From IMG/VR virus record IMGVR_UViG_3300033568_000036, positions 1-41,532 of that record: 41,532 nt of DNA. One strand, written 5' to 3'. A program made the position numbers and the translations under genes. How positions within the stretch are numbered: the stretch's first letter is position 1; each line of letters begins with the position of its first letter. Of the stretch, positions 3,795-14,503 are shown one piece after another. Below the pieces are notes generated by a model. It was given only the letters and a program-made list of their open reading frames with translations, was not told where the DNA came from and did not search any database. The stretch is from a virus (taxonomy: Duplodnaviria; Caudoviricetes).

Positions 3795-4102
3795 CAGGTG
3801 TCCGTGGCGGTGTCGTCGAGAAGCGTGGGGTTCTCCGCGAGGTGCTTCAGCCCCCCGCCGAGTAGGAGGCGGATGAGGGCGCTGCACTCACGGGTGAGGC
3901 GCTTGACCTGCGCTGTGTTCTGGGCCGTGCTGGGGCTGGCCAGGGCGAGGTAGGTCTGGTTCGCGGTGAGGGCGGCTAGGCCCTTGGCGCGGAGGTCGTC
4001 GGCGACCCATTCGGCGGTGATGTCAACGAGATAATCGGGGCCAATCTCAACAGGCTGGCCATTCTCCCATCGTACATTTTTTGAGAGTCGCGTTTTAGTC
4101 AT
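3794..4102 (-). CDS. Small fibre-associated protein, possible chaperone
   Basis: TAATG-coupled to the collagen-like gene. MTKTRLSK...ANQTYLALASP...AQVKRLTR. Confidence 0.6.
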   Translation of the reverse strand: MTKTRLSKNVRWENGQPVEIGPDYLVDITAEWVADDLRAKGLAALTANQTYLALASPSTAQNTAQVKRLTRECSALIRLLLGGGLKHLAENPTLLDDTATDT

Positions 4103-5460
4103 TAGGACACCCGCATTAGAAGTAGGGGGGCGACATTGGCGGTTGCAACAGGCGTATAGGTCGAGCCCCAGGACGAAGGCATCGCACCACTGACGCCGGT
4201 TTGGGAATAGGCCACCCCCATCGCGCCGGACCCGTATGGGCTCAACACTCCAATCAAGGGGTGATACGCAGATACCCCAACCCTCTGGACACTCGGCGCG
4301 ACAGACTGCCCAACCCCCGCAATCCAAACGAGGCCTGAAAGCGTTTGCGAAATTGTATAGGTGATGTCCCCGCCGGAATCCATTGCGATCTGGCCGGAAT
4401 CCAAAATGAGCGAATCTGGCCTACCGTTGTTGTCCGTGTATAGCCCCACTCGCATCTTCGAGGAAGCCACCCCGATATTTACGATTAAGATTCTGTCGAA
4501 ACCTGTGGACGGACCCACGAAAAAGGGCATGGCGTAGAGGGTGTCGAGAGTGATGGTCCCGTTCGACCCGATGGTCCGATAGCCGCCGTTGTAGTATCTC
4601 GTGCCCCCGGTGATGTGGCCGGTGATCTCTGACGCACCTTGGTAGCCCTGGGTCCCTTGAGTGCCCTGACTCCCCTGTGTTCCCTGGTTCCCCTGGGCTC
4701 CCTGGTAACCCTGATTCCCCTGGCTCCCGGCGGTCCCCTGGGCGCCCTGGAACCCCTGGTTCCCCTGGTAGCCCTGCGTCCCCTGATTGCCCTGGCTCCC
4801 TTGCGAACCCTGAGCCCCAGTAGCGCCCTGCGCCCCGCCTGCACCCTGGTAGCCCTGCGCACCCTGCGACCCAGTGGCTCCAGCCGCGCCCTGCGCCCCC
4901 GCGTCACCCTGGAAGCCCTGGGCACCGTCCGCGCCGGTTGCGCCCTGGAACCCCTGAGCGCCTTGCGAACCAGTAGAACCCTGAGAACCAGTAGCACCCT
5001 GAGTCCCATCCGCGCCCACCAGCCCCATCGTCCAGGAGTTCTGCACCCCCGAGCCGCGATGACTGATATACGCCACCGTCAAAGTGGTCCCTGAGTACGA
5101 GGTGACTGAGCCGGTGTAGTGCAATGGCCCAGATAGGTCCACGCCGTAGATGGCCTGCACCCGGTCGCCCGCACGGTACGCGAGGCCCGCGTCCACCGTG
5201 AAGGCCACAGAGAGTGGAAGGTCGGAATAGTCCACAGAGGTCGAACTGGTGGTGAGGTAGCCCGCGCCCTGCGCGCCTGTGTCGCCCTGCGCCCCCTGCG
5301 ACCCTGCGCCCTGAACACCCTGCGCGCCCTGGTACCCCTGGGCACCCTGAGAACCTGCCCCTTGCACCCCCTGCGCGCCTTGAACACCTTGCACACCCTG
5401 AGCCGACAGTCCCACCACCCGCACCACGGGGACGCTCTTCACTACCGTCTTGTCGCTCAT
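4102..5460 (-). CDS. Collagen-like fibre protein (Gly-X-Gln repeats, globular middle and C-terminal domains)
   Basis: Two Gly-X-Y blocks and a beta-rich C-terminal domain. Confidence 0.85.
   Translation of the reverse strand: MSDKTVVKSVPVVRVVGLSAQGVQGVQGAQGVQGAGSQGAQGYQGAQGVQGAGSQGAQGDTGAQGAGYLTTSSTSVDYSDLPLSVAFTVDAGLAYRAGDRVQAIYGVDLSGPLHYTGSVTSYSGTTLTVAYISHRGSGVQNSWTMGLVGADGTQGATGSQGSTGSQGAQGFQGATGADGAQGFQGDAGAQGAAGATGSQGAQGYQGAGGAQGATGAQGSQGSQGNQGTQGYQGNQGFQGAQGTAGSQGNQGYQGAQGNQGTQGSQGTQGTQGYQGASEITGHITGGTRYYNGGYRTIGSNGTITLDTLYAMPFFVGPSTGFDRILIVNIGVASSKMRVGLYTDNNGRPDSLILDSGQIAMDSGGDITYTISQTLSGLVWIAGVGQSVAPSVQRVGVSAYHPLIGVLSPYGSGAMGVAYSQTGVSGAMPSSWGSTYTPVATANVAPLLLMRVS
4630..5016 (-). repeat. 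43 uninterrupted Gly-X-Y codon triplets (9-nt periodicity)
   Basis: GAD GTQ GAT GSQ ... GTQ GYQ GAS, counted from the translation. A shorter interrupted block lies at about 5260-5397. Confidence 0.9.
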
Positions 5461-8212: not shown

Positions 8213-9441
8213 AGGCGGAATCCGTGGACGGTGGCGGTGCGTTTGATGATGGGGAAGAGGGAATGGACCTTGTAGCCATAGCCGTCAGGCATGTGGTCAA
8301 TACCGAGGGACTTGTCGGGCTCCGAGGTGCCTTCCTTGTAGGTGAGCCCTTCCAGGCCCTTGATGAGGGACTTGCACCGCGGGTTGATGAATCCGCGGAC
8401 CTCCCCGCCGGCGTTCCGCATGACGGCATTCACCTCGTTGATCCGGTCCACCACGAGGGGCGCCTTCTCAGGGGCAATCACCTTGAAGCCTGCAGCCCTG
8501 AGGATGCTGAAGTCGGTCTGCCCCACGGGTGCGGAGGTCTTCCGGGAGTTACCCGACGGGTCCGGGTAGACGATCACCCGGCGGCCAGGGAAGCGCCGGA
8601 GCAGTTCCGCCACCATGAGGTCCGTGTTCCCGTTGGGGATCTCGATCTCCCGGAAGGTGTGAAGCTGGCCACCGGGCGCGACCGAGCAGCATGCGCTCAT
8701 AGGGTTCACGTTAAAATCCATCCCCACCTGCAGGGGCAACTCCAGGATGTCTTCGATGTCGGCCCGGACGTTCTGCGCCCGCTCGAAGTTCTGGTAGCAG
8801 CGGCCACTCAGGGTCTCAAAACTGGCGTGAAACTCCTGGCGGTAGGTCCGCTCGTCCAGTTCTGCTTGGGCAGCTGCCAGTTCCTCGGGGGGCACGTTCC
8901 CACCATCGGCCGTGGTGAACTGCCAGGCCTCCCAGCCGGGGGCATCCTGCGCCTTCGTCCAGAGCTCGTGAAAGTGGTTGAACCCCTTGGGCGTCCCGAT
9001 GAACAGGGCCCAGCCTGCCTTGTCGGCCAGGGCCGCGCGAATCACTTCGAACCAGGCGTCCGGGTCCATGTCCGCGAACTCATCCAGCACCACGCCATCG
9101 AGGCCCACACCACGGAGGCTGTCAAAGTTGTCCGCGCCGCGGAGGGCGATGACGCAGCCGTTCTTGAACTCCACGGACAGGTCCGTCTCGTTCACCGCGG
9201 CGACCCAACTCATCGGGATCATCCGCTTCAGTTGCTTCCAGGCGATCTGCTTGGCCTGGCGGTAGGTGGGCGCGATGTACCAGAAGGTCTGGTCCCGCGC
9301 AGCCCGGAGCAGGGCGGCAGCCAGGAGGAGCGCCAGCGCCAGGAAGGTCTTGCCGAACCGGCGGCCGGCGACAACGACCTTGAACCGCGCCTTGCTATGA
9401 AAAACGCGACCCTGCGGCTTTGTCAGGGTCACGGTCGGCAT
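8209..9441 (-). CDS. terL: Terminase large subunit
   Basis: Walker A VAGRRFGKT, Walker B VVLDE, GTPKG, nuclease motifs GMDFN and DHMPD. Confidence 0.95.
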   Translation of the reverse strand: MPTVTLTKPQGRVFHSKARFKVVVAGRRFGKTFLALALLLAAALLRAARDQTFWYIAPTYRQAKQIAWKQLKRMIPMSWVAAVNETDLSVEFKNGCVIALRGADNFDSLRGVGLDGVVLDEFADMDPDAWFEVIRAALADKAGWALFIGTPKGFNHFHELWTKAQDAPGWEAWQFTTADGGNVPPEELAAAQAELDERTYRQEFHASFETLSGRCYQNFERAQNVRADIEDILELPLQVGMDFNVNPMSACCSVAPGGQLHTFREIEIPNGNTDLMVAELLRRFPGRRVIVYPDPSGNSRKTSAPVGQTDFSILRAAGFKVIAPEKAPLVVDRINEVNAVMRNAGGEVRGFINPRCKSLIKGLEGLTYKEGTSEPDKSLGIDHMPDGYGYKVHSLFPIIKRTATVHGFRL

Positions 9442-9713
9442 TACTTCGGCTCCGCGGGGACGATGAGGACGAAGGGATCACCGTTGGCGTCGCCGACGTT
9501 CAGGGTGCTGGGCAGAACCTTCCCGAGCAGGGTCATGAAGGCCACGGGGTTGACTCGCATCTGCTCTTCAAGCCACTTCTGGCCGCCGGCCTCAGAGAGC
9601 GCGCCGAGGATCATGTCCTTCAGGGCCTTTGTGTTCTTGTTGGGGCAGCCCTTGCGGGAACCGCCACTGTTTGGCACTTTGTGAATTCCCTTAGGGGGGC
9701 CCGGCTTTTTCAT
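9441..9713 (-). CDS. terS: Terminase small subunit
   Basis: GGSRKGCPNKNTKALKDMILGAL...AFMTLLGKVLP. TAATG-coupled to terL. Confidence 0.75.
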   Translation of the reverse strand: MKKPGPPKGIHKVPNSGGSRKGCPNKNTKALKDMILGALSEAGGQKWLEEQMRVNPVAFMTLLGKVLPSTLNVGDANGDPFVLIVPAEPK

Positions 9714-9925
9714 CCCCTCACCTCCACATGAAACGCCCGGCACACCGGGCACAGGACGACCGTGACGCAGCCTTCGCGCATGTCCTGGACGACCCGACAG
9801 GCCTCGACCCAGGTGAAGGGCGGGGACGTACACGGGCCCTCCTGGAAGGCCCCACAGATCCGGCAGACCCGGGCCTCGGTCATCGCGTCCACGCGGAGCG
9901 CCCAGAGGTGGCGGCAGGTGGTCAT
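9710..9925 (-). CDS. Small Cys-rich hypothetical protein
   Basis: CRHxW, CRIC and CPVC motifs. ATGA overlaps at both ends. Confidence 0.6.
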   Translation of the reverse strand: MTTCRHLWALRVDAMTEARVCRICGAFQEGPCTSPPFTWVEACRVVQDMREGCVTVVLCPVCRAFHVEVRG

Positions 9926-10113
9926 GCCACACCCAAAACAGGCGGGTCCACCGGCCAGTCGCAATCGGGGCACCTATACACCGCTGGCAGCGGACAGTCC
10001 TCCTTCAGGCAGACCCGCACCAGCGCATAGGCGCCCGTGGAGGGCTGTCCTGGGGCCGGCGGGGGGAAGGGTGGGCGGAGGGGCTGGCGAGGGGGGGTTC
10101 GCTTCTGGCTCAT
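9922..10113 (-). CDS. Small Pro/Cys-rich hypothetical protein
   Basis: MSQKRTPP...CPDC. ATGA overlap with the methyltransferase stop. Confidence 0.55.
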   Translation of the reverse strand: MSQKRTPPRQPLRPPFPPPAPGQPSTGAYALVRVCLKEDCPLPAVYRCPDCDWPVDPPVLGVA

Positions 10114-11036
10114 ATCAGGCGGCTCCAGAGTGTTTGCCATGCGAGCGCAGCGCACTGAGGCACCTGGCCGTTACCAATGGCTTTAAGTCGGTCCACCCGA
10201 TGGGCCACCCCATGAGCCACTCGACCCAGTTGGGGTTCAGTGAGCCACCAAAAACCTCCTCCGGGCCAAGTAGTGCCAGCATCTTCTTCCGACTGCCCGA
10301 TCCACCCCACTTGCTGAGATCGCGGCCCGTGGAAGGCGTGGCATATTTCGGGTGTGCATGAGGATTCCCCACCACCTCCGAGAGCGGCTGTGCCCGTTCC
10401 ACTGCCCGTTCCACTGCCCGTTCCACTGCCCCTGGCTGCTTCCAGTCGCGGGCTGTGGGGGTTCGCCACGACCTCACCGCAAACCCCAGCGAGGTCCCGC
10501 CCTGGGCGTAGTTGGTCGTCCGGTCCCCGTCCGCTACGGGTGTGGGCCAATATCCAGATCCGTTCCCTCTTGTGCGGCGCTCCGGCGTCGCAAGCGCCCA
10601 GCACACACCATTCCGCATCGTACCCCAGCGCGGCCAGGTCCCCAAGAACACGGTCGAGGCCTCGGCTAGTAAGGTTGGGGCTGTTCTCCACGAACGCGAA
10701 TCGGGGTCGAACCTCGCCAATGATTCGCGCGAACTCAGACCAGAGGCCAGACCGGGCTCCGGTGATTCCAGCGCCCTTTCCGGCTGAGGAAATGTCTTGG
10801 CAGGGGAATCCCCCGCAGACGACATCGACGTGGCCGCGCCAATCTCTTCCGTCGAAGGTGCAGACATCATCCCAGACGGGGAACCAGGGGAGCAGGCCGT
10901 CCCGCTGTCGCTGGAGCAGGACAGCCCGAGGGTACGCTTCCAGCTCGACGGCGCAGACTGGCACATGGCCGCAAAGGAGTCCGCCGAGAATGCCGCCGCC
11001 GGCTCCGGCGAAGAGATGGAGCTCGCGTAGTGCCAT
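10110..11036 (-). CDS. DNA cytosine-5 methyltransferase, alpha-type polypeptide (motifs I-VIII and X)
   Basis: LFAGAGG (I), GGFPCQDIS (IV), VENS (VI), PHKRERIW (VIII), RLKAIGNGQVP (X). No motif IX in this frame. Confidence 0.92.
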   Translation of the reverse strand: MALRELHLFAGAGGGILGGLLCGHVPVCAVELEAYPRAVLLQRQRDGLLPWFPVWDDVCTFDGRDWRGHVDVVCGGFPCQDISSAGKGAGITGARSGLWSEFARIIGEVRPRFAFVENSPNLTSRGLDRVLGDLAALGYDAEWCVLGACDAGAPHKRERIWILAHTRSGRGPDDQLRPGRDLAGVCGEVVANPHSPRLEAARGSGTGSGTGSGTGTAALGGGGESSCTPEICHAFHGPRSQQVGWIGQSEEDAGTTWPGGGFWWLTEPQLGRVAHGVAHRVDRLKAIGNGQVPQCAALAWQTLWSRLI

Positions 11037-11041
11037 GTCAC
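10115..11041 (-). CDS. Overlapping-frame methyltransferase beta-type polypeptide (xxTP repeats and motif IX-like segment)
   Basis: 308 open codons in a second frame with WPTP/WRTP/YATP units and LNPNWVEWLMGWPIGWTD. GTG overlaps the VRR-NUC stop, though the true start may be internal. Confidence 0.72.
   Translation of the reverse strand: MTWHYASSISSPEPAAAFSADSFAAMCQSAPSSWKRTLGLSCSSDSGTACSPGSPSGMMSAPSTEEIGAATSMSSAGDSPAKTFPQPERALESPEPGLASGLSSRESLARFDPDSRSWRTAPTLLAEASTVFLGTWPRWGTMRNGVCWALATPERRTRGNGSGYWPTPVADGDRTTNYAQGGTSLGFAVRSWRTPTARDWKQPGAVERAVERAVERAQPLSEVVGNPHAHPKYATPSTGRDLSKWGGSGSRKKMLALLGPEEVFGGSLNPNWVEWLMGWPIGWTDLKPLVTARCLSALRSHGKHSGAA
10391..10431. repeat. 12-bp tandem repeat TGCCCGTTCCAC, about 3.4 copies
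   Basis: Read directly. Encodes GSGT repeats in the alpha frame and AVER repeats in the beta frame. Confidence 0.95.
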
Positions 11042-11493
11042 GCCGCCCTCCCGATGGCCACCCGGAACGCCTCCAAAGCCTCCTCGACGGAGCGCGCCGA
11101 GAAGGCGATGTGGCCCGAAGCCCTCGCCCCCTCCAAAAACGCCTTCTGCCCCTCCCGGAACCGCCCGCCGGGCTTCTTGACCTCGATGAAGAGGAACTGC
11201 CCGTCCCCCACCCTCCCCATCAGATCCGGAAACCCCGGGGGGATGCCCACCCAGAGCTCCAAGCCGAAGGGCAGCGGGGGGAGCTCGGGGAAGAGGCCGG
11301 GGGGCATCAGCCGGACGCCCTTCTGGCCTACCCCTCCCGCGTCCATCTTGGCCAGGTGAATGTCGTGGGTTCGCAGAAACGCCTGCTGGATGGCCTGCTC
11401 AATGCCCTTCTCGGTTACGGAGAGGGAGCGCTTCCTCGCCCTCGCCTTCCGGTCCATGTTGGCGGACACCTTGGCCCAGGATTGGAGGGTCAT
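11038..11493 (-). CDS. VRR-NUC domain nuclease/resolvase
   Basis: E..I at the N-terminus, GFPDL, FIEVKKPGG and Q..FL, a PD-(D/E)XK signature. Confidence 0.88.
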   Translation of the reverse strand: MTLQSWAKVSANMDRKARARKRSLSVTEKGIEQAIQQAFLRTHDIHLAKMDAGGVGQKGVRLMPPGLFPELPPLPFGLELWVGIPPGFPDLMGRVGDGQFLFIEVKKPGGRFREGQKAFLEGARASGHIAFSARSVEEALEAFRVAIGRAA

Positions 11494-11509
11494 GGGGCAC
11501 TCCTAGCAC

Positions 11510-11746
11510 TTCCACGACCTAGGTCGTGGAAACTGGTCGAGGTCGTGGAAGCTGGAACCCGCGCCACTGTTACATTTCCACTACCTCCACGACCTCCACG
11601 ACCTTCTCTATATAGAGGGGTTAAAATAAAAGTGGCGGAGACTTTAGGGAAATGGGGTCCAGAGTCGTGGAGGTCGTGGAAAGCTAGTCCTACGGCCCAT
11701 CTAGGTCGTGGAACTAGGTCGTGGAAAGGTCGTGGAGGTCGTGGAA
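11510..11746. other. Putative replication origin: about 12 GGTCGTGGA iterons around an AT-rich core
   Basis: Iterons in both orientations, a 22-bp palindrome at 11510-11531 and an AT-rich core at 11604-11631. Directly downstream of the primase-helicase gene. Confidence 0.8.
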
Positions 11747-11752
11747 GTGGCC

Positions 11753-13831
11753 TCATGTCGGCACCCAGACCCGCTGGGTCCGCCCGTCCAACTTGGGGAA
11801 CGCCAGCCTCCAGCCCTTCTTCTTCAGGATCTCCGCCAGCTTCATCGTGGTGCCCCGGTTCTGCTGGTTCACCAGGATGCCCATCTGGGACAGGATCTCG
11901 GCAGCCCGCACGCCGTCGCTCAGCCCACCCTGGCGGGTCATGCGGGCGGCGGCGATGGCGGTCAAGGCGGTGTCAACCTGGTCCTCCCAGGGGTCCTCAG
12001 CCTCGAATGCCTCGCTCTGGATCTCCCGCTCGGCTTCCAGACTGGCGTCCAGCCAGTGCGGGTCGCCGGCCAGGTGCAGGTGCAGGGCCTCCGCCCAGAG
12101 TTGGTCCCGCCACTGGGCCAGGAGGGGCAGGTTGATGGTCCCGGGGACAGAGATGGACCAGAAGCGCCGGCTGCCGGTCGGGTCCGTGTGGTACTGATCC
12201 CGGTTGGTGGTGCCGACGATGATGGAGGTCCGGGGGAAGACGCCCACGGTCCGGCCGTAGGGCGGACGATAGGTGTCCTCGGAACTGCTGATGAAGGCCT
12301 TGATCCGTTCGGCCGCCCGGGTATTCGTCAGGTGGTCGATCTCGGGGAGCTCATAGATCCAGCGCCGGTTCAGCACCTGATAGGCGTCCTTGTTCTCCAG
12401 GTCCAGGGGGGTGTCCCCGAACCACTGCTCCCCGGCCAGGGTCCGCCAGAAGGAGGACTTGCCGATGCCCTGGGCGCCCCCGAGGACCATGACCGTGTGC
12501 AGCTGGCAGGCCGGCACGAAGACCCGGCGCACGGCGGCGATCATGGTGCGGGTGAAGTAGACGGGCTCCATGTGGGGTTCGAGGATGCCCAGCACCTCCT
12601 GGGGCACCGCGGACAGCCGGGGAACGCTGTCCCAGTCCGGCAGGGAGAGCAGCCAGGAGCGCACGGGGTGGAAGGGGTGGCACTCGGCAACGGCCCGGAT
12701 CTTGGCCGCCACGTCCTCGCGCCCCCAGCGCAGTCCGCCGAACTGGTCCTCAAGCTTCTCCTGGACGTGATCCACGAAGCTATCGCCGACCAGCTGGCCC
12801 TCAAAGAAGATGTCTTGGCTCATGGTGTTGAGCGCCAGGGCCGGCCCCCATGTGGGGTCGTGGCGGAGGATCTTCATGAGGTTGCCCGGGGTGGGCTTGA
12901 TGTGGCCCTTGGAGTCCTTGTGGAGCCGTTCGCTCCAGGTTCCAGCGCCGCCCTCGTCCACGCTGACCTCGGAGGCCGGGATGGGCTGGGGACGCCAGAC
13001 GTTGTCCAGCACGGGCAGCTGGGTCAGCAGGTAGCCCATCGGCTCCGTGCCGGACTTCAGGGCGCTGCGCAGCTTGCCGGCCAGATCCTTCTCTGACCAG
13101 GGGGGGGAGCAGCGGGTGTTCCAGCCCTGCAGGTGCGCCAGCGCCTGCTCTTCCGTGAGGGCGAACCCGCGAATCAGCTTGCAGGCCACGCGATAGGTGT
13201 GGGCGTCCCCGCCCTGCCCTTCAATGGCCGGTGGCGTGGAGTCCATGTAGCGGGCCACGCGCCGGTCGAGGTCCGTGGTGCCCGAGAAGGCCAGCACCTT
13301 GGGCAGCTGGATCGGCTTGGCCTTGACGCCAATCCACGCCGGCTCGAAGACGGGCAGGACTGTCGGGTCCCAGGCCCCGTCTTCCTGGTAGAGCGCGCCG
13401 CTGGGATGGATGGACCCCGGGGCCACGACATAGCCGCCGTCCCCCCGCACGTCCAGGGGCATGCCCAGGAGCCTCGTGCCGTTGCGCACGTCCGTCCCGG
13501 GGTGCCGGAAGAAGTAGTGCCGGCCATTGCCGGTCTTGGTGCGCATGGGGCTGGGATGGTTGCTGGACAGCCAGGCCACGGCCTCGGGGCTGTCCGCGTC
13601 CACCACCACCACTTTGGAAATGGCACCCGTGACGATGCCGACGTTCAGGTCGGCACGGGCGAACCAGGTGCGGATCTCCTGCTCCGTGGCCAGGCGCTGC
13701 TGGTAGGGCATCCATGAGGGGATGGCGGGCTTTTTGTCCCGGGCCCGGATGGGAATGACGGACAGCCCCAGGGCCAGCAGGCGCAGGGCCGTATCCAGGG
13801 GATTCGGGCGGGCGTTGGGGGCCGGCATCAT
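11753..13831 (-). CDS. Bifunctional primase-polymerase / PriCT-like / VapE-type helicase
   Basis: VVVDAD, GRHYFF and DVRGDGGYVVAPGSIH (prim-pol). GAQGIGKS Walker A and GTTN..DPTGSRRFW (VapE). Confidence 0.92.
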   Translation of the reverse strand: MMPAPNARPNPLDTALRLLALGLSVIPIRARDKKPAIPSWMPYQQRLATEQEIRTWFARADLNVGIVTGAISKVVVVDADSPEAVAWLSSNHPSPMRTKTGNGRHYFFRHPGTDVRNGTRLLGMPLDVRGDGGYVVAPGSIHPSGALYQEDGAWDPTVLPVFEPAWIGVKAKPIQLPKVLAFSGTTDLDRRVARYMDSTPPAIEGQGGDAHTYRVACKLIRGFALTEEQALAHLQGWNTRCSPPWSEKDLAGKLRSALKSGTEPMGYLLTQLPVLDNVWRPQPIPASEVSVDEGGAGTWSERLHKDSKGHIKPTPGNLMKILRHDPTWGPALALNTMSQDIFFEGQLVGDSFVDHVQEKLEDQFGGLRWGREDVAAKIRAVAECHPFHPVRSWLLSLPDWDSVPRLSAVPQEVLGILEPHMEPVYFTRTMIAAVRRVFVPACQLHTVMVLGGAQGIGKSSFWRTLAGEQWFGDTPLDLENKDAYQVLNRRWIYELPEIDHLTNTRAAERIKAFISSSEDTYRPPYGRTVGVFPRTSIIVGTTNRDQYHTDPTGSRRFWSISVPGTINLPLLAQWRDQLWAEALHLHLAGDPHWLDASLEAEREIQSEAFEAEDPWEDQVDTALTAIAAARMTRQGGLSDGVRAAEILSQMGILVNQQNRGTTMKLAEILKKKGWRLAFPKLDGRTQRVWVPT

Positions 13832-13985: not shown

Positions 13986-14132
13986 TCACTTCAGCCGCCA
14001 CAGCACAAAGGCGATGACACTGCAGGCGCCCAGGAAGAAGCCGCTTCCAATGGTGGCGAAGAGCCAAGCGACGGACGGCGGGGCCGTGGGCTTGTAGGGG
14101 CGTCTCGGGCGGTGCTGTTGGCCTCGGGGCAT
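13986..14132 (-). CDS. 48-aa membrane peptide (not in ORF track)
   Basis: My translation: MPRGQQHRPRRPYKPTAPPSVAWLFATIGSGFFLGACSVIAFVLWRLK. TAATG-coupled to the rlpA-like gene. Confidence 0.6.
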   Translation of the reverse strand: MPRGQQHRPRRPYKPTAPPSVAWLFATIGSGFFLGACSVIAFVLWRLK

Positions 14133-14503
14133 TAGGACACCACTTCGACATCAACGATGAAGACGCCGGCATCCACCATGCCGAGCACGGCAGCGGCGCC
14201 CCTGCTCAGGTCGAGGTCGCGGCCGGGAATCGTCGGCCCCCGATCCGTGATCCGCACCACCACGGACTGGCCGCCCAGGGAACAGCGGAGCCGGGTGCCG
14301 AAGGGCAGATAGGGGTGGGCTGCGGTCATGGCGTTCATGTCGAAGACCTCACCGCTTGCGGTCTTCCGCCCGTGGTAGGGATGGCCGTACCAGGAGGTCA
14401 CCATCCGGTTCAGCTTCACGGGCGTCTCCCGTGTCGGCTGGGGCGGCACCTTGCCGGGGTAGGAGGTCAACTGGAAGATGAAGGCTAGGAGCCAGTTGTT
14501 CAT
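14132..14503 (-). CDS. RlpA-family (double-psi beta-barrel) lytic transglycosylase-like protein
   Basis: SWYG..YHGRKTASGEVFDMNAMTAAH..LPFGT...VRITDRGP...RDLDLS..AA..LG. Confidence 0.9.
   Translation of the reverse strand: MNNWLLAFIFQLTSYPGKVPPQPTRETPVKLNRMVTSWYGHPYHGRKTASGEVFDMNAMTAAHPYLPFGTRLRCSLGGQSVVVRITDRGPTIPGRDLDLSRGAAAVLGMVDAGVFIVDVEVVS

Follow-up and report, generated by a model that had tools for sequence, protein, structure and literature searches.

Two fully overlapping reading frames of a temperate phage are conserved together and probably encode the two chains of one C5-cytosine methyltransferase

A single stretch of minus-strand DNA in a tailed temperate phage holds two ORFs of 308 codons each, alpha (10110-11036, starting with ATG) and beta (10115-11041, starting with GTG). 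They overlap from end to end, with starts 5 nt apart and stops 5 nt apart, beta being the +1 frame of alpha; the coordinates agree with the original prediction, which had been made from the letters alone. The locus is a case of real, conserved dual coding, kept in nearly all of the related phage genes that we examined, and its sequence features suggest that the two chains probably assemble into one orphan C5-cytosine methyltransferase. The window, i.e. the whole stretch of 41,532 nucleotides that was analysed, is an entire 41.5-kb virus record with integrase, CII-like, ImmA-like, terminase, portal and tail genes.

Alpha consists of a large domain (residues 1-170) with motifs I-VIII, a disordered linker (about 178-262), a conserved segment (263-287) and motif X (288-293, at 10158-10175 on the minus strand). 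It matched PF00145 over residues 6-167 only (103.7 bits, cut-off 22) and phrog_363 over residues 1-301, and its score against TIGR00675 was 75.6, under the cut-off of 100.65. Motifs I-VIII align with those of M.HhaI, and the catalytic Pro-Cys (Pro78-Cys79 of motif IV, 10788-10814), Glu-Asn and Arg-x-Arg are all present and invariant in 44 of 44 representative loci; motif VI has Ser where Val is usual. Motif IX, whose absence from alpha had been pointed out, is found only in the +1 frame. In the AlphaFold model of alpha, pLDDT is mostly at least 90 at residues 1-170 and 290-308 and below 50 at 178-289, and Foldseek placed the model on M.HhaI with an rmsd of 2.2 A over 168 columns. Alpha alone is predicted to fold as the large domain without the small domain, residues 178-289 being unstructured in the model. 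By its motifs alpha is classed as a C5-cytosine methyltransferase, and not as the monomeric form, in which motifs IX and X stand in the same chain.

Beta matched phrog_1008 (E 1.7e-27) and no Pfam family. It is composed of a Ser-rich extension (residues 1-107), a conserved segment (108-145; 10607-10720, minus strand) lying under alpha motifs VI-VII with two predicted beta-hairpins, three Thr-Pro units, and a motif IX-like segment (268-286; 10184-10240). The latter is conserved in both frames, can be aligned with the motif IX of its EcoHK31I-type counterpart and is separated by 47 nt from alpha's motif X downstream, a distance that is fixed in relatives. The frame had been described as Ser-rich filler where alpha is catalytic, which is mostly, not wholly, right: Ser makes up 25% of residues 1-107 against 7% of the remainder, but beta is conserved from about residue 108, and a few slowly changing sites, such as the one under beta Thr83, also lie under beta 6-107. 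A sequence search of the PDB with the beta profile returned one chance match (E 2) and no solved relative, a search of the ESM Atlas gave no usable match, and the AlphaFold model of beta alone had a mean pLDDT of 53, too poor for a fold search. The lack of a Pfam or solved-structure match would suit a beta that is real and has a separate role, as a regulator or inhibitor of alpha or something unrelated, with alpha working alone. Yet beta carries the one motif missing from alpha, at a constant distance of 47 nt to motif X, and in some relatives motif X itself shifts into beta, so a separate role is very unlikely.

If the two frames form one enzyme, both should stay open across relatives, and this was found in both directions. 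The 80 IMG/VR loci chosen by alpha alone all have a +1 frame free of stops from motif I (or from where the contig starts) to motif X, and 77 have the layout of the window; in the others motif X lies in beta (L051), or the locus is cut (L066) or frameshifted (L071). With these three, 8 duplicates and 4 loci cut near the start dropped, 66 loci were kept and reduced to 44 representatives (below 75% identity). Their beta frame has no stop where synonymous recoding of alpha predicts about 315 (63 in motifs I-IV, 114 in IV-VIII, then 81 and 57 in the two following parts, with none observed in any), a summed expectation that overstates the significance since the relatives are not independent; the third frame of the same representatives has 709 stops against 687 expected. 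In the window by itself, 1.3% of trials of synonymous recoding of alpha yield a +1 frame free of stops. Of 80 GTDB loci selected with the alpha alignment, 79 likewise have an open +1 frame, and the remaining one (L119) has one TGA. No stop was seen in the motif IX part of beta.

The reciprocal set comprised 80 loci chosen by beta alone, with 11 dropped (6 failures of the motif pattern, 3 without motif IV in frame and 2 duplicates). Alpha is open from motif IV to motif X in 64 of the 67 loci with motif X in alpha, and the alpha variable region of 66 loci contains 2 stops against 348 expected (third frame, 316). When motif X sits in beta, the alpha linker takes stops, with seven in the variable region of L264 and a similar picture in L196, which suggests that the linker has to stay open only where it leads to motif X. 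Single stops occur in beta in L119, L219 and L246 and in alpha in L094, L222, L243 and L254, and L071 carries a frameshift; loci of this kind are decayed copies or assembly errors. That the second frame is open by chance, or is an assembly artefact, could be thought of in a window of 66% GC with many long shadow ORFs. It is refuted by the stop tests and by the recurrence of the two-frame layout in isolate genomes, in cultured phages and in relatives whose GC is 43-65%, and we give it practically no credence.

Selection specific to one frame, which the original prediction had proposed to measure, was seen on a tree of 182 sequences. Under motif IX, fourfold sites of alpha changed 8 times on average, against 47 under beta 6-107 and 45 under motif X. 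The third bases of alpha Ala135 and Gly138, which fix beta Pro137 and Gly140, did not change in the 182 sequences, and those of alpha Val116 and Asn118, which fix beta Trp118 and Thr120, changed 7 times each. Both frames, the beta start codon and the selected beta residues are under purifying selection.

The two chains probably start from a shared initiation region (11034-11052, minus strand), recognised from the sequence and from paired starts in relatives. A Shine-Dalgarno-like GGAGG (11047-11051) is followed 5 nt later by the beta GTG and 10 nt later by the alpha ATG, and the region is less structured than 197 of 200 shuffles, a weak signal. The terminal TGA of the upstream VRR-NUC nuclease ORF (11038-11493, minus strand) overlaps the beta GTG, 1 nt before the alpha ATG. 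Coupling of the starts to this stop, part of the original prediction, is not conserved, as tblastn of VRR-NUC against all fetched loci matched only the window's own locus, and the gene was rejected as a conserved partner and is regarded as context. Relatives typically start with ATGAATG, alpha first and beta 4 nt further on. This beta start is present in 42 of the 44 alpha-picked representatives, against a background of 52% for the base that creates it, and the two without it, one of them the window, use another upstream beta start. The usual beta start is found in 184 of 198 distinct loci, a set that is partly beta-picked and thus biased; of the other 14 loci, 13 have an upstream beta start, 12 of these within 7 nt of an alpha start (counted by eye, several loci being related). 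In 28 of the 198 loci the alpha start is shifted with the beta start unmoved, some with a Shine-Dalgarno-like site of their own, so that one shared initiation site is not universal. Among 156 canonical start pairs, an upstream ORF ends on the ATGA of alpha in 51 and on that of beta in 45. We infer that both chains initiate independently, usually from one site; on the evidence of conservation, beta has its own start codon, as in enzymes of the M.EcoHK31I type.

The original prediction had offered a double-frameshift single chain as its alternative. Ribosomes would then read alpha motifs I-VIII, shift +1 into the beta units and motif IX, and shift -1 back for motif X. Such a product would have the canonical motif order, and the order in the DNA is colinear with monomeric enzymes. 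However, two frameshifts could do without open reading in beta 1-160 and in alpha 170-285, and both are kept free of stops; an open 5' half of beta and an open alpha linker are expected of two separate chains. The conserved beta start codon and the selection on beta 108-145 would also be left unexplained, the sole slippery heptamer, at 10486, falls within unit 1, and M.EcoHK31I works from two separate genes, according to the available part of its published description. A doubly frameshifted single chain is strongly disfavoured on these grounds, and we consider it highly improbable.

In the available parts of PMC2836561 and PMC3404938, M.EcoHK31I is an E. coli two-chain C5 methyltransferase of YGGCCR. 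For comparison we used the EcoHK31I-type locus L190 of E. coli AR_0017, whose sequence agrees with the primer and Met17/Met26 given in the available text of PMC2836561; the primer matched 81 of 5,426 E. coli genomes, and a search of plasmids with it gave no match. This chromosomal cassette (L190, 3514-5380) encodes a 309-aa alpha beside a NotI-family endonuclease, with alpha alone annotated. A 176-aa beta begins at alpha codon 104 in its +1 frame, which has stops further upstream; motif IX precedes motif X by 53 nt. The window shares with M.EcoHK31I an alpha with motifs I-VIII plus X, together with a +1-frame beta with motif IX just upstream of X, at a spacing of 47 nt instead of 53 nt. EcoHK31I-type beta 31-65 corresponds to window beta 130-164, which is in register with it and includes part of the conserved segment 108-145, although the match between the two betas is weak (hhalign probability 5%, HMM E 1e-4) and partly forced by alpha. 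This is the region where published deletions weaken association: as far as the available text of PMC2836561 goes, N-terminal deletions of 41-50 residues of EcoHK31I beta progressively weaken association and abolish in vitro activity at 1 uM, and zinc-finger fusions are active with beta deletions up to about 65-67. By this comparison and by the frozen or nearly frozen third positions of alpha, residues 108-145 of the window's beta seem likely to contact alpha.

The window also differs from M.EcoHK31I in several respects. The EcoHK31I-type beta has an internal start, whereas the beta of the window does not begin inside alpha near motif VI; it runs end to end with alpha for 308 aa from a paired start and has a 99-residue extension relative to its EcoHK31I-type counterpart. 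M.EcoHK31I stands beside a NotI-family endonuclease, whereas the window enzyme is an orphan in a temperate phage, and M.EcoHK31I is without an array of Thr-Pro units, of which the window's beta has three. New relative to M.EcoHK31I are the end-to-end overlap with paired starts and the 1-6 shuffled Thr-Pro units in beta. Together, the reciprocal stop tests, the conservation of the starts, the frame-specific selection and the comparison with L190 support the two-chain, EcoHK31I-like organisation that the original prediction had favoured.

The xxTP repeats noticed in beta turned out to be three Thr-Pro units, each an aromatic residue and Thr-Pro at the start of a segment, which occur 1-6 per beta between motifs VIII and IX. 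We counted 457 units in 192 betas, with a median length of 35 aa and two betas without any. Unit 1 (165-191; 10469-10549) is a mobile module, with copies of 81-96% identity at differing array positions in betas whose cores are mostly 38-59% identical; the betas compared were chosen for their resemblance to that of the window, which inflates the frequency of this unit. Unit 2 (192-232; 10346-10468) contains a 12-nt tandem repeat of 3.4 copies (10391-10431), one copy more than in relatives from contig sets, four of which were searched and contained relatives only; the repeat is read as a predicted helix in the beta frame and as Gly-Ser-Gly-Thr in the alpha frame, where it forms the low-complexity run noted at the outset. 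Unit 3 spans residues 233-267 (10241-10345).

Pro-Thr-Pro was matched 232 times in beta and not once in alpha over 206 loci. Pro-Thr-(Ile/Leu/Val/Met) gave 25 matches, 15 of them above the 50% twin threshold; 8 of these 15 are true full-length twins of Pro-Thr-Pro units, seen both with Pro and with Leu/Ile/Met/Val after Thr, and the rest are short end-of-array matches. The TL consensus that the available text of PMC2413257 gives for target-recognition domains (TRDs) has the Pro-Thr-(Ile/Leu/Val/Met) form at its core. Most units have Pro where this consensus has Ile/Leu/Val, and the upstream part of the published consensus is unmatched; since the twin units match the TL core, the units are likely recognition modules, and since they interconvert with the canonical motif, the enzyme may be multispecific. 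For each individual Thr-Pro unit, a role as a target-recognition module is somewhat more probable than not.

It could instead be that there are two chains with recognition lying in alpha or being nearly absent (relaxed specificity), the Thr-Pro units being only structural. The TRD of M.EcoHK31I has been placed in alpha, by prediction, in the available part of the literature; a Thr-Leu dipeptide is present within the variable region of EcoHK31I-type alpha, and strict Pro-Thr-Pro is absent in 55 of the 206 loci. On the other hand, selection within the window's variable region acts on beta: among 66 distinct changes in unit 1, 41 leave the beta protein unaltered and 8 the alpha protein (from five distinct relatives, with one 6-nt deletion inflating the non-silent counts). 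Moreover, the alpha variable region is unconserved, predicted disordered and acquires stops where motif X has moved out of alpha. In the EcoHK31I-type beta, too, a Pro-Thr-Leu stands about 12 residues ahead of motif IX, and part of the TRD of that enzyme may hence be in beta as well. We therefore regard this reading as unlikely and favour beta as the likely specificity chain.

The multispecific methyltransferases of Bacillus temperate phages, including SPR and phi3T, are single chains with TRDs of about 40 residues. As described in the available parts of PMC12707154 and PMC2413257, they are orphan enzymes with tandem TL-type modules between motifs VIII and IX. The window locus resembles them as an orphan phage enzyme with several tandem candidate modules in this position, and differs in that its units, whose role is proposed here from sequence, stand on a second chain in another frame and mostly have Pro at the second TL position. 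M.AquI (CYCGRG) is likewise a two-chain C5 methyltransferase, with motifs IX and X on its small chain in the available text of PMC3404938. Motif IX is on the smaller chain of M.AquI and on the window's beta, whereas motif X is in the small subunit of M.AquI and in alpha of the window. Some relatives of the window locus show an AquI-like split with the frames still overlapping, as motif X has moved into beta in L051, L082, L107, L196, L264, P0104 and P0121-P0125. Beta forms with an internal start were found in mycobacteriophage-type loci (L165-L169 and L179-L182).

Insertions were also seen within this family. In L051, where alpha ends past motif VIII, an ORF that we labelled HNH-like by eye (Cys-x-x-Cys pairs and His motifs; 2444-2869) lies in the third frame inside beta, and P0125 has a similar insertion. 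The beta of P0126 has an in-frame insertion of about 150 aa, which we take to resemble a LAGLIDADG homing-endonuclease segment. Long single-chain forms with in-frame units numbered six proteins, all of beta type, five with motif X fused and none with catalytic motifs; P0090, in which alpha motifs I-V are joined to beta without VI-VIII, was set aside as probably a frameshifted read.

A profile of the 44 representative betas matched 25,214 protein clusters at E <= 1e-10. Beta matched 181 phage records; among the 40 matches listed, 10 have two methylase genes, 2 a methylase and a hypothetical gene, 27 one feature and 1 none. Of four records inspected, three annotate alpha only and one annotates a beta with a late start. 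In Mycobacterium phage Commander (L082, 1354-2100), gp76 is annotated from 1516, past the conserved beta segment, and the frame is open from 1354. Both frames of the window are members of PHROG families labelled DNA methyltransferase (363 for alpha and 1008 for beta), which PHROG keeps separate, their relation as two frames of one stretch being unrecorded. The original prediction that gene callers would miss beta was thus too strong, as beta is already PHROG 1008, with tens of thousands of clusters, and callers often report one frame and rarely both; what annotation usually misses is that both frames are genes. In its available part, PMC11855218 regards phage methylases of this sort as single ORFs that conceal an HNH, and we found no account of a two-frame phage methyltransferase family in the open literature, a weak negative given that subscription journals and REBASE were outside its scope.

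The locus lies between a primase-helicase and the VRR-NUC nuclease gene on one side and the terminase genes on the other. None of the nine ORFs scanned against PADLOC matched a restriction-enzyme model, in keeping with the orphan state proposed earlier as far as it was tested. Third-position GC is 0.58-0.72 in alpha against 0.85-0.92 in three neighbouring genes. A small Cys- and Pro-rich ORF without a family match (9922-10155) lies 3' of the methyltransferase, and contig relatives of this region span 9913-10105; next to it is a likely terminase small subunit (9441-9932; phrog_11043 over residues 86-149), with an internal ATG as the probable true start. At the 3' end of the primase-helicase, direct repeats of 9-13 nt in both orientations flank an AT-rich patch (11500-11760; tandem-repeat rows from TRF at 11577-11604 and 11701-11745), an arrangement resembling a replication origin. 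Among the early genes is one for an RlpA-like double-psi barrel protein (14132-14503), and a collagen-repeat protein (4102-5460) is encoded between terminase and portal. Over the window (1-41532), CTAG (0.46) and ACGT (0.50) are under-represented, and CTCGAG, ACGCGT and CACGTG are absent where 13.6, 8.8 and 6.8 are expected; host restriction pressure is a possible cause of this shortage, and the counts identify no target for the methyltransferase. The closest alpha among the GTDB loci (71%; L088, 1238-2603) is in a Holophagaceae MAG and has a GTG/ATG start pair as in the window, unit 2 and five units in total. The phage primase, used as a query, was not found in this MAG, which is only a hint to the phage host.

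Under the proposed mechanism, two start codons behind one ribosome-binding site would yield two chains from one stretch, alpha being the large domain and beta the small domain, with motif IX and the Thr-Pro units. Beta would grip alpha by its residues 108-145 and by its motif IX helix. Its residues 1-107 may serve mainly as a spacer whose frame stays open to let the chains start together and be produced in similar amounts, and alpha 178-262 would be a passive linker, kept open only for motif X. Units swapped by recombination could change or add target sites, as in the Bacillus enzymes; by this analogy it is reasonably likely that the recognition modules are exchanged in the same way and that the enzyme shields newly replicated phage DNA from host restriction. 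We more tentatively envisage, at somewhat less than an even chance for the whole, a large phage family in which the two frames are catalytic and specificity subunits, one start site fixes their ratio and targets are reprogrammed by shuffling cassettes in the hidden frame. This same tentative picture would have the visible frame tolerate any cassette as a disordered loop, and motif X move between frames, linking the EcoHK31I-type and AquI-type splits.

A design proven for one E. coli enzyme now appears common among phage cytosine methyltransferases, with a same-strand overlap of 0.75-1.3 kb. If the two-chain reading is true, anyone who clones, recodes or codon-optimises the annotated gene loses the second chain, and many phage "methylases" would test falsely inactive, and specificity would have to be read from the unannotated frame. 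The cassette arrays would then be a natural library for decoding C5 target recognition, and the family would offer thousands of independent loci in which to study the upkeep of full-length overlaps and paired start codons.
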